Shown here piece after piece: positions 1-22,095 of a DNA stretch of 45,856 nucleotides. The notes under the pieces are model-generated. The model worked only from the letters and a program-made list of their open reading frames with translations, made no database searches and had not been told where the DNA came from. The stretch is from Candidatus Hydrogenedentota bacterium (GTDB taxonomy: Bacteria > Hydrogenedentota > Hydrogenedentia > Hydrogenedentales > SLHB01). A program made the position numbers and the translations under genes. The stretch lies in NCBI GenBank assembly GCA_034408725.1, contig JAWXCN010000015.1, positions 1 to 45,856 of the forward strand, written 5' to 3'. The number at the start of each line of letters is the position of its first letter. Within the stretch, counting starts at the first letter, position 1.

Positions 1-88
1 GATCATTACAGACCACACGGGGGAGTAAGAGAATTCGATTACGAGCGCGAATGCGTCGTTCGGAGCGTCGTTTGTAGAGAAGGGGGTC

Positions 89-267
89 AAAAAGAGGAGC
101 CAGGGGTCCGCGCCGGGGGTGGCGGCGCGGACCCTGCTGTAAAACGAGGGGGAAGAGGGTAGTGGGGGAATCTCGTTTTTTGGCGCGGATGGGCTGTGTT
201 GGGGAAGAGGGGGGACCTTCCGCGCCGTGTCACTTGGGGTGATTCAACTCTTGGGGAGTCTGGCTCC
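89..267 (-). ncRNA. Candidate sRNA: 8-bp closing stem around five hairpins with C-rich loops, followed by a U-tract
   Basis: Inverted repeats at 96-103/260-267, 104-115/123-134, 141-148/172-179, 182-189/219-226, 230-233/239-242 and 247-250/256-259. Minus-strand loops: CCCAA twice, CCCUCUUCCCC twice. A5 at 89-93 gives U5 at the 3' end. Confidence 0.55.
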
Positions 268-379
268 GTTGTATATAGAACGACTCTTATGCGCATCTTA
301 TTTCAATTATTTTCGGGTTAGCGCAGAATTTTTCCTCGAACAGATATAAACCAAAAAACAGCAATGTTTTAGAACGAAT

Positions 380-417
380 AAAAAAATTGCCACGCCCCCG
401 GTGCATGGGGCGCAGCA
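380..417 (-). terminator. Intrinsic terminator of the DUF2946-DUF1559 unit
   Basis: Minus strand UGCUGCGCCCC...GGGGCGUGGCA stem, then one A and U7, 40 nt past the stop at 458. Confidence 0.8.
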
Positions 418-457
418 TAAGAGATTAACCTACAACACCGTAGGACGCGCACTTACA

Positions 458-1345
458 TCAGTGCTCATGTCCATGCGAGGCTTCGTGCAAAATCAACCCG
501 CCTTCGTTCACCGGAAACGGCGCGCCCATCGCGCCGCCGTATTTCAGGAACTCGACGTGACCATCCATGTACAACACGTTGCAGCCGCCCGGCGCATGAT
601 TGAAATGGCTCGTTTCATCGCTGATCTCATCCCAGAAAATTGGTAAGGATGATTGTGACGAAGAACTCCGCGTGGGGTCGTTTATGTCCGTGATGAAGAA
701 CCGTTCAATCCCTTCCCGGAGCCGCGGAAAGCTGGTGCGCCCTCCGACCGGCACAGGTAACTCCCAATCTTCGTTCACGAGCGCGGCGTCGCCTGCTTCG
801 ATCCCTTCAATGAGACTTTCGAGTCCCGCCTCGAAGTTCGCAAGGTCACCAGCACTCGCAAATTCGGAGTCGAGCACGCCGGGCGAAATGGCCCAAGCCA
901 TATAGACATAGGGATGTTCGCATAGCTCGCAAGGTTCAACTACGCCGTTGTTCGAGAATCCTGGGGTTTCTTCCCAATTGAATGACGGCGTGTTTCCCTC
1001 GTCCCAGAGCTCGAGGGCCGAGCTTCCCGCGACGGAACTCGGGCACACCAGCACGTCCAGGTCCGTAAGATATTCGGGGTACAAGTAACTCGCCTCGAAT
1101 ATCTGGTTCCAATACTGGATTTCGCCGGCGCAGTTCATCACCTTTTGCGCGGGCAACAATCCTCCTTTGCTTTCCGAAGAGTACATTTTGAATACGAGTC
1201 CGAGCTGTTTCAGATTGTTCTGGCAACTCGCGCGGCGGGCCGCTTCGCGGGCCCGGGCTAGCGCGGGCAACAGGATCGCCGCCAGAATTCCAATAATCGC
1301 AATTACAACCAATAACTCGATAAGGGTAAATCCACGATATTTCAT
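458..1345 (-). CDS. Prepilin-type N-terminal cleavage/methylation protein, DUF1559 / H-X9-DG family
   Basis: RG^[57 protein letters not shown]-terminal tail HEASHGHEH. Confidence 0.92.
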
Positions 1346-4831: not shown

Positions 4832-6181
4832 CTACTCGCGGTCCCACTTTAACAGCCACGGGTCGTTCGTCTTCTCCTGCATTGCGCGAATCCGGTGCTT
4901 CAAATCCGCGAGCAGGGTCGCAAGCTGGGGATTCTCCGCGAGATTCTGAATTTCGTGTGGATCGGCCTCGAGGTCGTACAACTCAAATTCCGGACGCCGT
5001 TCGTACGCTTCCACCGTGCGTTTTCCATAAGCCGTCAGGCCCCGTGCGCGCACGCCCTGCCACGTCTTCGATTGCCACAGGTCGCTCGCGAACGGAAACG
5101 GAAGGCCGTGCGCGATGTTCCAGATCAGCTTGTGCCGCCGGGTTCGCACGGCGCGCATCGGGTAATACATTGTCACTTCGTGAAACGTGTGCGAATGATA
5201 TACCTCGTCCCATTCAGCCGCGGTTTCCGCGCGCGCCGCGTCCAGAAACGATCTGCCGTGGCAGGTGTTCGCCGTCGCGCCGCAATACTCAAGGATTGAC
5301 GGCATGATGTCGATCCACGAAACCATCGCGTTCGATGTGTAGCCTTGCCTCGGATTCCGCGGATCGCGCACGACGCACGGCAGGTGCACACCCGGTTCGT
5401 ATAACGTCGTCTTTGCGCCCGGCCACGGCATGCCGTTGTCCGTCGCAAACACAATCAAAGTGTCTTCCCAATGACCGGTTTCGCGCAGCATGTTCATCAA
5501 CAAAACCAGTCCACTGTCCGCACGTTGAATCGAGGCGTAATACTCCGCGAGTTCTTGCCGGCATTCGGGAATGTCCGGGAGGTGTGGCGGAACGGTGATT
5601 TTCGTGGCATCAATTACGTCTGATCCTTCGCGCCGGAATGGGCGATGCGGCTCGGTGGGACAGAAATAAAGAAAAAAAGGAGTGGGGTCTTTCGACTCAA
5701 GGAGCGGACGGCACTTTTCCGCCATGTCCACCGGCGCGGCGCCCGGAATATACTCCTGAAAATGGTATGCGGCTTCCGGCAGTACGTGCACTTTACCCGC
5801 GCACAACGTGCGATACCCCGCTTCGCCCAGCACGACGGGCAGGCTTTTAACATCGGCGAATGAATTGAAATGATGTTTTGCGTGTGCCAATCCGTACTGG
5901 CCGTTCGCGTGGTTGTGCATGCCCGTCAGGATAACGGACCGGCTCGGACTGCAGCTTGGCGTCGTGCAGAACGCGTGCGTGAACCGTACGCCCTCGCGCG
6001 CAAGCGCGTCGAGGCCAGGTGTCTTTACATGGGGATTGCCGTAACACCCCGCGTCGTTCATTCCGTGATCATCCGTGATATACAAGATCACGTTGCGCGC
6101 CGGAGCGATGGCCGCGCCGGCCTGGATGGTCGTCCCCGCAACCAGGGTGCCCGCGGTTTGTAAAAATGTCCGACGCTTCAT
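4832..6181 (-). CDS. Tat-exported sulfatase (N-sulfoglucosamine sulfohydrolase-like)
   Basis: MKRRTFL twin-arginine signal, formylglycine motif CSPSR, GKVH, TDNG. Confidence 0.9.
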   Translation of the reverse strand: MKRRTFLQTAGTLVAGTTIQAGAAIAPARNVILYITDDHGMNDAGCYGNPHVKTPGLDALAREGVRFTHAFCTTPSCSPSRSVILTGMHNHANGQYGLAHAKHHFNSFADVKSLPVVLGEAGYRTLCAGKVHVLPEAAYHFQEYIPGAAPVDMAEKCRPLLESKDPTPFFLYFCPTEPHRPFRREGSDVIDATKITVPPHLPDIPECRQELAEYYASIQRADSGLVLLMNMLRETGHWEDTLIVFATDNGMPWPGAKTTLYEPGVHLPCVVRDPRNPRQGYTSNAMVSWIDIMPSILEYCGATANTCHGRSFLDAARAETAAEWDEVYHSHTFHEVTMYYPMRAVRTRRHKLIWNIAHGLPFPFASDLWQSKTWQGVRARGLTAYGKRTVEAYERRPEFELYDLEADPHEIQNLAENPQLATLLADLKHRIRAMQEKTNDPWLLKWDRE

Positions 6182-20655: not shown

Positions 20656-22095
20656 TCAATGTACTCCGTGGACTATGGCGTTCATTCGAGGGACAAATGC
20701 CCTGATGCAATCTAAAAGTGCGGCAAGATGCGCTTCTTTAGTCAACGGATTCAGCAACGTTACGCGCAGGAATAACCCCCTCGGCAGGCGCGCTTGAACG
20801 ATGTAGAACGCGCCGGATTGTACGATGTGCTTGCGGATGGCCGCATTGAGCGCTTCGAGATCGGCTGTTCCCTTGGGTGCATAACGGAAACAAACAATAT
20901 TGGTATCAGGCTCAATGGCGAGGTCGAAATCTGGCGTATCGCGAACCATCTGGGCAAATGTCCGCGAGAGATCGTACTGTCTTGTTACGTAATCGGCGAA
21001 GAATTTCGTTCCATAACACATGAGCGCCGCGTACACCTTGAGGCACATCATGCGTTTGGTGCATTCCATGGTTCGATGCCCGAGGTTATACCATTCTTCC
21101 TGTGGGTTGCTGCCCAGGAGATACGACGCGCGATCGTCGAACGCGCAGAACGAATGCTCGCTGTTACGGAAAATGACGCCGGTGACGAGCGCCGGCATGA
21201 GCATCATCTTGTGCGCGTCGAACACAACGGAATCGGCGCGCCCGCAACCCTCAAGCAGGTGGCGGTACTTGTCGCTCAACCCCGCTGGACCGCCGTGCGC
21301 GGCATCCACATGCAGCCAGAGTTCGTGCTTTTCGCAGAAATCGGCGATAGGCGCAATTCGATCGTGCGTGCCCGTCGCGGTGGTACACGCACTGGCAACG
21401 ACGCAAAGCGCTTTCCGTCCGTCCGCTTCCGCGCGATTCATTGCGTCCGGCAAGGCGTCTGGCCGCATCCGGAATTCATCGTCGCTGGGCACGCTCACCG
21501 CGGCTTCCTCTCCCCAGCCCATAATTTTCACGGCACGTTTGACTGAATAGTGCGCTTGATCCGAGACGAGGATCGCGGGTTTTACATCGCCGAATTTTTC
21601 CAGCATGACGCGCCGCATGGCGAGCATGGCGGTCATGTTTCCGATAGAGCCACCAGAGGTAAGCACTCCGTCGCAATCGGGGCCAAGCCCAACGACGCCA
21701 CCCATCCATTTAATCAGCGCGCGCTCCATCGCGACGCCTTGCATGCCCATTTCGTAAACGGCCATGCCGTTGTTCAGGAATGAGGCGACCAAGTCGCAGA
21801 GCGCGGCCATTGGGAGCGGACCGGGCACCTGGTGGCCCATGTAGCGCGGATGATGCAGGTGGGTGGCATGTTCGACGGCGCGCGACAAGAGGTTGTTTAG
21901 GTCTTCCGCGGGAAGATCGGGAAAAGTCTGCGGCCACCGCTTGAGCATTGCATCGGTTTCGGTCCAGGGCAACACCGGCATGTCAGCGCCGTTCGTGGCG
22001 CGCGCAAGGTAATCCGCCAGCATATCGACGACGGCGTGCGCCTGCGCGCGAAACAGCTCAGCATCGAACGCGCCGTCTATCGGATCGTTACTCAT
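20656..22095 (-). CDS. Group II PLP-dependent decarboxylase (DABA/aromatic/Glu decarboxylase family)
   Basis: HHPRYMGHQ, TSGGSIGN, HYSV, WLHVDAAHGG, DAHK. Confidence 0.9.
   Translation of the reverse strand: MSNDPIDGAFDAELFRAQAHAVVDMLADYLARATNGADMPVLPWTETDAMLKRWPQTFPDLPAEDLNNLLSRAVEHATHLHHPRYMGHQVPGPLPMAALCDLVASFLNNGMAVYEMGMQGVAMERALIKWMGGVVGLGPDCDGVLTSGGSIGNMTAMLAMRRVMLEKFGDVKPAILVSDQAHYSVKRAVKIMGWGEEAAVSVPSDDEFRMRPDALPDAMNRAEADGRKALCVVASACTTATGTHDRIAPIADFCEKHELWLHVDAAHGGPAGLSDKYRHLLEGCGRADSVVFDAHKMMLMPALVTGVIFRNSEHSFCAFDDRASYLLGSNPQEEWYNLGHRTMECTKRMMCLKVYAALMCYGTKFFADYVTRQYDLSRTFAQMVRDTPDFDLAIEPDTNIVCFRYAPKGTADLEALNAAIRKHIVQSGAFYIVQARLPRGLFLRVTLLNPLTKEAHLAALLDCIRAFVPRMNAIVHGVH

Follow-up and report, generated by a model that had tools for sequence, protein, structure and literature searches.

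Structure and position of the element

The window, i.e. the whole stretch of 45,856 nucleotides analysed here (positions 1 to 45,856 of contig JAWXCN010000015.1, assembly GCA_034408725.1, Candidatus Hydrogenedentota bacterium), carries near its start, on the minus strand, a compact RNA element at 267-96 (RNA coordinates are given 5' to 3' on this strand). The element lies between a gene encoding a DUF1559 protein and the end of the contig and is directly preceded by a promoter-like block (Table 1). An original prediction, made from the letters of the window alone, had described there an unannotated RNA in which a stem (267-260 with 103-96) encloses five hairpins with similar C-rich loops. Every element that it described was located at its minus-strand coordinates by reading the strand and by a motif script, and RNAfold returned, as minimum free energy (MFE) structure and as centroid alike, an 8-bp closing stem around five hairpins. 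The element is real, conserved, structured and non-coding, and it is very probably a small-RNA gene; in the genomes sampled it does not extend beyond three genera of one Hydrogenedentota family.

Table 1. Features of the small-RNA locus in the window, listed in the direction of the minus strand. G000 is the genome of the window; the four close homologues are those of G000, G001, G002 and G003.
Feature	Position	Strand	Remarks
DUF1559 / N-terminal methylation-motif protein, 295 aa	458..1345	-	Pfam PF07596 (2.8e-13) and PF07963 (3.5e-09); neighbour, not part of the element
Terminator-like hairpin and T-run of the DUF1559 gene	378..417	-	11-pair stem, then ATTTTTTTAT
-35-like hexamer TGAAAT	300..305	-	G, A, A and T of TGA(A/C)AT invariant in the eight-sequence alignment; also in G051, G012 and G054
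Palindrome ATGCGCAT in the promoter spacer	289..296	-	(A/G)TGCGCAT in the four close homologues; absent from more distant members
-10-like tetramer CGTT	279..282	-	17 nt after TGAAAT; only the last T invariant
Closing stem P1, 5' strand GGAGCCAG	260..267	-	Pairs with 103-96 in MFE and centroid; invariant in 4/4 close homologues
Hairpin 1, ACUC-CCCAA-GAGU	247..259	-	In G000 and G003; G001 and G002 cleanly lack the whole module
AGUUGAA, partly junction linker	243..249	-	Invariant in 8/8 sequences of alignment A6 (genera g1 and g6)
Hairpin 2, UCAC-CCCAA-GUGA	230..242	-	Kept in 4/4 close homologues; loop one C shorter in G003
Hairpin 3, 8-bp stem GGCGCGGA/UCCGCGCC, loop ..CCCCCCUCUUCCCCAA..	182..226	-	RNAfold
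Hairpin 4, 8-bp A/U-rich stem AAAACGAG/CUCGUUUU, loop AUUCCCCCACUACCCUCUUCCCC	141..179	-	RNAfold
Hairpin 5, 12-bp GC stem, loop CCACCCC	104..134	-	RNAfold; most conserved element of the family
Closing stem P1, 3' strand CUGGCUCC	96..103	-	Conservation stops here; downstream diverges at once in the four close homologues
UCUUUUU tail	89..95	-	Directly after the closing stem; not conserved

The MFE of 267-96 is -73.8 kcal/mol, against a mean of -42.7 (standard deviation 4.0) for dinucleotide shuffles, none of which was as stable (0/200; z -7.72); the complementary (plus) strand of the region gives a z of -3.70. Of the 36 G residues, 34 are paired, and it is the excess of C that the loops present: the 78 bases unpaired in the MFE structure comprise 44 C, 22 A and 10 U but only 2 G. 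CCCCAA occurs three times, CCCUCUUCCCC twice and CCACCCC once, and the mean unpaired probabilities of these motifs are 0.83-1.0. Besides its outer stem, hairpin 3 has a 3-bp stem further in and a large loop that holds CCCUCUUCCCC and CCCCAA and has an unpaired probability of 0.99-1.0; its outer seven pairs are invariant in the close homologues, and its inner stem changes yet still pairs. Hairpin 4, whose 23-nt loop contains CCCCCACUACCCUCUUCCCC, was misaligned by MAFFT but takes the same fold in all four close homologues when each is folded alone.

Reads of four DNA runs (contigs) over window positions 1-600 show no variant letters, indels or joints and so provide no natural covariation or transcript ends, and one public contig reaches 114 nt past the window start. 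On the plus strand, a 5'-open frame of 53 codons runs from the contig start (1-162) opposite hairpins 4 and 5 and is probably spurious.

A non-coding, single-copy element outside the described families

The structured RNA element belongs to no described family, as the original prediction had thought possible. Rfam 15 gave no match at gathering score anywhere in the window. A second scan with relaxed thresholds found as best matches ar14 (22.1 bits for a cut-off of 58.8; E 0.056) and 6C (21.6 bits for a cut-off of 47; E 1.7), the 6C model aligning to hairpin 5 only (136-92). An identity as 6S RNA (RF00013) was considered and rejected: the window has no 6S match, and the 6S RNA of the genome, of which there is usually a single one per genome, lies elsewhere (G000:C106:714-896; 82.1 bits, above the cut-off).

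The 5.17-Mb assembly, which is 92% complete, holds one copy of the element, whether sought by BLAST, by a covariance model or by a regular expression for hairpin 5. It is therefore not a dispersed repeat or a mobile element, which removes one objection that had been foreseen with the original prediction. Furthermore, an open reading frame (ORF) of 69 codons overlaps the element (296-87) but meets stops or frame shifts in G001, G002 and G003, and the element is thus non-coding.

Conservation of the five-arm form in the genus of the window

Among 41 related genomes searched at the DNA level, three of the same genus (G001, G002 and G003; 87-88% identity) gave long matches and G004 gave a short one. 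Each of the three long homologues folds alone into the same closed junction (z -8.79, -6.66 and -6.99, respectively), and the loop sequences, whose conservation had been set as a check on the original prediction, are kept along with the fold. Among the close homologues, loop motifs are conserved as strongly as stems and the linkers vary. The conserved stretch has a sharp upstream edge at TGAAAT and runs to the final base of the closing stem; neither flank can be aligned. Indels fall in loops or linkers, or remove a complete hairpin. Two of the four close homologues (G001 and G002) lack hairpin 1 and nothing else of the module arrangement, and the hairpin count is four or five. In the four-sequence alignment, 92.6% of cells are paired, versus 37-46% when the partners are slid.

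Distribution of the family and probable strand of the transcript

Covariance models were built iteratively (R1 from four sequences, then R2 and R3, until convergence) and run on 135 genomes sampled across the phylum. Model R1 retrieved a full-length member in G004 (39.8 bits) and weak matches in a second genus, g6. In the end, full-length relatives were found in 11 of the 135 genomes, all in three genera of one family: in every genome of genus g1 (5/5, that of the window included), in 4/6 genomes of g6 and in 2/3 of g9. Public genome and metagenome contigs were also scanned with a pattern made of a near-invariant hairpin 5 and an upstream C/U-run, which divergent members would escape. The genome contigs gave six loci, namely the known ones of G002, G003, G004, G009 and G052 and one unrelated Thermoleophilia hairpin, and the metagenome contigs gave a single locus, on the same contig as that of G003.

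Several weak model matches were rejected or set aside. Those of G062 and G090 are GC hairpins directly after gap genes, and in G068, G077, G011 and G037 hairpin 5 alone was matched. Weak matches in G093, G123, G090 (a second one, L039) and G052 (a second one) were left out of the count of 11 members. The second match of G052 (G052:C75:4677-4846, L042) is full-length (22.8 bits, E 0.005) and is either a divergent paralogue or noise.

Beyond the positions marked in Table 1, the eight sequences of alignment A6 are invariant at the last T of the -10-like GAAT/GATT/CGTT and over most of hairpin 5; the AGUUGAA motif was not seen in the two g9 members. Hairpin 5 also provides the evidence from covariation. 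Over the 11 members, 98.3% of its cells are paired, two pairs show compensatory changes (three cells), three cells are wobbles, and none of 500 shuffles reaches its covariation score, in an alignment that was fitted to the model and hence favours the structure. The wobble cells would be A-C mismatches on the opposite strand. Together with the z-scores and the promoter-like block at the 5' side, this points to the C-rich (minus) strand as the transcript.

The rest of the molecule is more plastic. In G004 the closing stem is replaced by another pairing stem, GGUCAAUCAG../..CUCGAUUGCC, which again encloses the whole molecule in the MFE structure. In g6 the body takes a two-domain fold, in whose 3' domain a closing stem surrounds hairpin 5 and a single unpaired C/U-run (CCCUCCCCUCCCC). 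All 11 members display unpaired C/U-rich runs and have 2-10 unpaired G each, but genera g6 and g9 have one C-rich stretch versus the five loops of the window's RNA, and the loop sequences vary between genera (CCCUCUUCCCC, CCCUCCCCUCCCC, a poly-C run). The simpler C/U-run design of the other members suggests that the five-loop form is a genus-specific elaboration of a simpler ancestral design.

Could the element be something other than a functional RNA, i.e. a feature conserved at the DNA level or a lineage remnant that folds well through its G/C-skewed inverted repeats? The restriction of the family to three genera would suit such a view, as would the invariance of most stems in the four close homologues, which leaves the helices hardly tested. 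However, shuffles fall far short of the stability of the fold in all four, indels spare stems or delete a complete hairpin, hairpin 5 covaries, and a sharply bounded conservation block with its promoter-like motif survives changes of neighbourhood. We consider this explanation very improbable and regard it as likely that 267-96 is a functional RNA gene.

The promoter-like block

The block upstream of the RNA fits a family-wide motif, TGA(A/C)A(T/C)-N16/17-GAAT, whose first part is present in 11/11 members and resembles TTGACA. The -10-like position reads GAAT in nine members, GATT in G003 and CGTT in G000 only, and the sequence upstream of TGAAAT is not conserved. In the whole genome, TGA[AC]AT-N16/17-GAAT occurs 56 times against 14-24 times in five block shuffles, a control that keeps base composition only, and the matches lie mostly inside ORF-like sequence. 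The perfect palindrome in the spacer may be an operator or the binding site of a regulator.

The original prediction had likened TGAAAT-17-CGTT to a promoter of an extracytoplasmic function (ECF) sigma factor. ECF promoters typically have a -35 element with AAC and a -10 element with CGT, 16-17 nt apart. The block itself stands, being conserved throughout the family, but its assignment to the ECF class finds no support in the form proposed: the -35-like TGA(A/C)A(T/C) lacks AAC, and CGTT is confined to one genome. A dedicated sigma factor or activator is possible. G048 is the only one of the loci examined with an ECF-type sigma gene (Sigma70_r2 and r4_2; L029:2529-3209, minus strand) upstream of the RNA; this gene, followed by a 306-aa ORF without a Pfam match, directly precedes the RNA in the same orientation. 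About 20 nt upstream of the 6S RNA match of the genome (L037), TTGACG-N17-TAGAAT was seen by eye, and it can serve as a guide to the housekeeping promoter in this lineage.

Gene neighbourhood and probable terminator

The RNA begins 190 nt after the stop codon of the DUF1559 gene. The original prediction placed a terminator between the two, and a terminator-like hairpin with a T-run does lie there (417-378); a different hairpin with a T-run is found at the same place after the DUF1559 gene of G003. The upstream gene encodes DUF1559 in G000, G003 and G001 but is an unrelated ORF of 464 aa in G002. Downstream, the next gene is convergent in G003 (sulfatase), G001 (PAS/HisKA) and G002 (DUF2071), and the window's contig ends 95 nt past the RNA. 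In the more distant members, a DUF255/Thioredox_DsbH gene follows directly on the same strand in G004 and G012; in G048, G051 and G052 a convergent gene of the metallo-beta-lactamase fold stands between the RNA and DUF255; and in G009 a convergent aminotransferase gene lies downstream. The DUF255 neighbourhood is thus kept in 5/7 of them, and the locus probably once adjoined DUF255, the RNA having moved in the genus of the window. Wherever a convergent gene comes after the RNA, the RNA has been retained.

These neighbourhoods bear on whether the element is part of a neighbouring transcript, either upstream of a gene, as its 5' leader or attenuator, or as 3' untranslated region (UTR), bidirectional terminator or stabiliser for DUF1559 and its convergent neighbour. 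DUF255/Thioredox_DsbH is directly downstream in two genomes and one gene further in three, the element follows the DUF1559 stop codon at a distance of 190 nt, and hairpin 5 is similar to those found at the ends of gap genes (G062, G090). However, a convergent gene parts the RNA from DUF255 in those three genomes, the next gene is convergent in G001-G003 (in the window the contig end is reached), the DUF1559 gene has a terminator-like hairpin of its own, and G002 carries the RNA without an upstream DUF1559. Moreover, the conserved promoter-like block directly precedes the RNA everywhere, and 170 nt of conserved loops far exceeds what a terminator needs. A role in cis therefore appears improbable. 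The variable and mostly convergent neighbours argue for a stand-alone gene rather than a leader or a 3' UTR, and an independent transcription unit ending at hairpin 5 would be the better fit to the sequences compared.

Hairpin 5 is the probable terminator of the RNA. The UCUUUUU tail sits 8 nt after it and was not called by the terminator scan, and G001-G003 have no U-run. In G062 (L016:1501-1597) and G090 (L035:1501-1588), a GC hairpin resembling hairpin 5 and lacking a U-run immediately follows the stop codon of a gap (GAPDH-like) gene. This suggests that U-less GC hairpins may terminate transcription in this phylum.

Proposed function of the RNA

We propose that the element encodes a trans-acting small RNA (sRNA) of the C-rich-loop kind that would pair with G-rich sites, chiefly ribosome-binding sites (RBS), a reading to which we give a probability of about 0.5. 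Like trans-acting sRNA genes in general, the locus appears to have a promoter-like block and a terminal GC hairpin, to be intergenic and not to be tied to one neighbour. The gene would stand alone and yield from the minus strand an RNA of about 175 nt, its own promoter-like block driving transcription from a few bases upstream of 267 to 96 or just beyond. In this RNA, an 8-bp stem would clamp the 5' and 3' ends together and five hairpins would radiate from the junction, nearly all G being buried in stems and the loops being left G-free and C-rich. As has been shown by experiment for other C-rich-loop sRNAs, the exposed C-runs could then pair without the help of Hfq; their partners would be G-rich single-stranded segments of mRNAs, Shine-Dalgarno or ribosome-binding regions foremost, and the pairing would repress translation. 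With several loops, one molecule could occupy several sites or several mRNAs. Transcription, exact ends, strand, targets and repression are what we infer, the strand with indirect support.

The pairing mechanism is favoured because of the anatomy of the loops, a canonical anti-Shine-Dalgarno tail of the 16S rRNA in this genome (..CACCUCCUUUCU), the apparent lack of Hfq, which was not found in the 92%-complete genome, and the precedents discussed below.

Several observations weigh against this proposal. Concerning the pairing, the loops contain CCUCU instead of the exact anti-Shine-Dalgarno core CCUCC. Sites complementary to CCCUCUUCCCC over at least 9 nt are not enriched before starts: 24/79 lie within 30 nt of the start of an ORF of at least 100 codons, gene starts being crude ORF calls, and 6/60 composition-matched permutations do equally well or better. 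The exact 11-mer occurs five times over both strands together, twice in the RNA itself, which is about what chance would give. Concerning the transcription unit, the -10-like variants G[C/T]GAAT, TGAATT, GTGATT and GTCGTT lack the A that a housekeeping promoter should have at position 2, and the UCUUUUU tail is replaced by ACCCUCA in G003, ACUCUUA in G001 and AAUCUUC in G002. Concerning the structure, covariation in homologues, which had been suggested as a check on the original prediction and which holds for hairpin 5, is weak for the five-arm form: a compensatory change is seen at a single pair among 47 (in hairpin 5, from U-A to C-G), most stems are invariant, and 95 of 500 shuffles reach the covariation score of the four sequences. 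This weakness results from the small number of sequences. The five-arm fold is backed by thermodynamics, by the behaviour of its modules and by its conservation boundaries; the statistics of compensatory changes are not yet supportive.

Instead of pairing with mRNAs, the repeated C-rich loops might titrate a protein that binds C-rich single-stranded RNA (Rho, or a protein of the KH-domain or cold-shock type), as CsrB and RsmZ do for CsrA. Such a decoy would account for the recurrence of one short motif in small loops on unrelated stems (C-CCCAA-G twice, CCCCAA in loop 3), for a module number that varies between one C-rich stretch (g6 and g9) and five loops (the window's RNA), which is how sponge RNAs evolve, for unpaired regions nearly without G (2/78) and for the lack of target enrichment. 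Rho loading sites are C-rich and G-poor, and a rho gene is present in the genome. On the other hand, the loop sequences differ between genera, and relaxed base pairing fits this at least as well as a protein site does; moreover, we know of no natural Rho-sponge RNA. CsrA, although encoded in the genome, was rejected as the partner: all three GGA triplets (RNA positions 1, 47 and 159) are in stems, and the only two unpaired G residues are those counted above. The likeness to CsrB/RsmZ sponges lies in the many hairpins, the single short motif on unrelated stems and the variable number of modules; the difference lies in the motif, which is C-rich here and not GGA. Altogether, we regard a protein decoy as unlikely.

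A broader version, which we hold to be quite unlikely, would make the RNA a multivalent decoy whose G-free, C-rich loops either soak up a factor binding C-rich RNA (e.g. Rho) or mimic the anti-Shine-Dalgarno tail of 16S rRNA and so compete with ribosomes for many mRNAs. The expansion in module number from one to five would then tune its capacity in the genus, and the shared, unusual promoter motif TGA(A/C)AT-N16/17-GAAT would mean that a single alternative sigma factor or stress signal controls the family.

Relation to known C-rich-loop regulators

For the proposed RBS-pairing sRNA, the closest parallels are found among RNAs of other phyla. The actinobacterial 6C sRNA (RF01066; B11 in mycobacteria) has about 60-80 nt and two main C-loop hairpins. 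It shares with the window's RNA the character of a small stand-alone RNA whose hairpin loops consist of C runs, but the two are not homologous by any test run, and the Hydrogenedentota RNA is a closed five-way junction of about 175 nt. In Mycobacterium tuberculosis and M. smegmatis, the C-rich loops of 6C are reported to bind several mRNAs at G-rich, single-stranded RBS regions, neither Hfq nor ProQ being needed (PMC6486639).

More generally, C-rich loop motifs have been proposed as signatures of RBS-pairing sRNAs (PMC4615179). The same source describes the cuckoo RNAs as having variable stems and hairpin numbers, a shared C-rich, anti-SD-like (anti-Shine-Dalgarno-like) loop motif CCUCCUCCC and a module number that changes between relatives, with two to four adjacent hairpins and no multiloop (PMC4615179). 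These alphaproteobacterial RNAs (ar14 RF02344, CcsR/RSs0680, NfeR1) resemble the window's RNA in their modular hairpins and changing module number. However, neither CCTCCTCCC nor CCTCC occurs in 267-96, whose loops carry CCCUCUUCCCC, CCCCAA and CCACCCC, and the window's RNA belongs to another phylum and is a multiloop closed by an 8-bp stem. Among Firmicutes, RNAIII displays UCCC in three hairpin loops (PMC4615179). RsaE/RoxS, the UCCC-loop sRNAs and RNAIII, whose C-rich loop motifs were proposed to seed RBS pairing, have such motifs in common with the element but no sequence or Rfam relationship to it, and they differ from it in architecture and phylum.

The element is new in its architecture, i.e. 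the clamped five-way junction, the G-free loops and the gain and loss of modules; in kind, it joins the known C-rich-loop regulators. It is a candidate for the first riboregulator of Hydrogenedentota, with a testable design in which nearly all G is hidden and C-rich loops are exposed around a clamped five-way junction. By the titles of its records, the phylum appears to be known from metagenome-assembled genomes alone. A full-text search of the literature found no paper naming Hydrogenedentes together with sRNA, and among the matches listed for C-rich small RNAs of Planctomycetes none was relevant by title or abstract. The element would extend the solution of C-rich loops and G-rich targets, used in Actinobacteria, Alphaproteobacteria and Firmicutes, to a deep lineage that apparently lacks Hfq. 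In addition, the family shows how such RNAs may evolve, loop modules being gained and lost around a conserved promoter and terminator hairpin. The value of the finding is moderate: RNAs of this kind are known, three genera make up a narrow distribution, and the RNA is a sequence-level candidate.

Other observations on the neighbourhood

The upstream membrane protein of genus g6 shows 71% identity between G009 and G052, and the upstream ORF of G002 is not homologous to it (E 0.27 and 0.44). A second copy of the RNA, of type B, was sought near the DUF255 gene of G000 and none was found there. A sulfatase-like ORF of the window (4832-6181, minus strand) closely resembles, by eye, the sulfatase gene that is convergent to the RNA and adjacent to it in G003 (L002:2-1291), which points to a local rearrangement. 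Upstream of the DUF255 gene of G000 (C13, about 21620-22020), a unit with CCCCCTAAATCCCCCTTCAAAGGGGGA occurs as two inverted copies with a distance of about 330 nt; between them are two similar segments (..CATCGTGATT..CGACGTTG..), and the arrangement has the appearance of a small mobile or repeat element.

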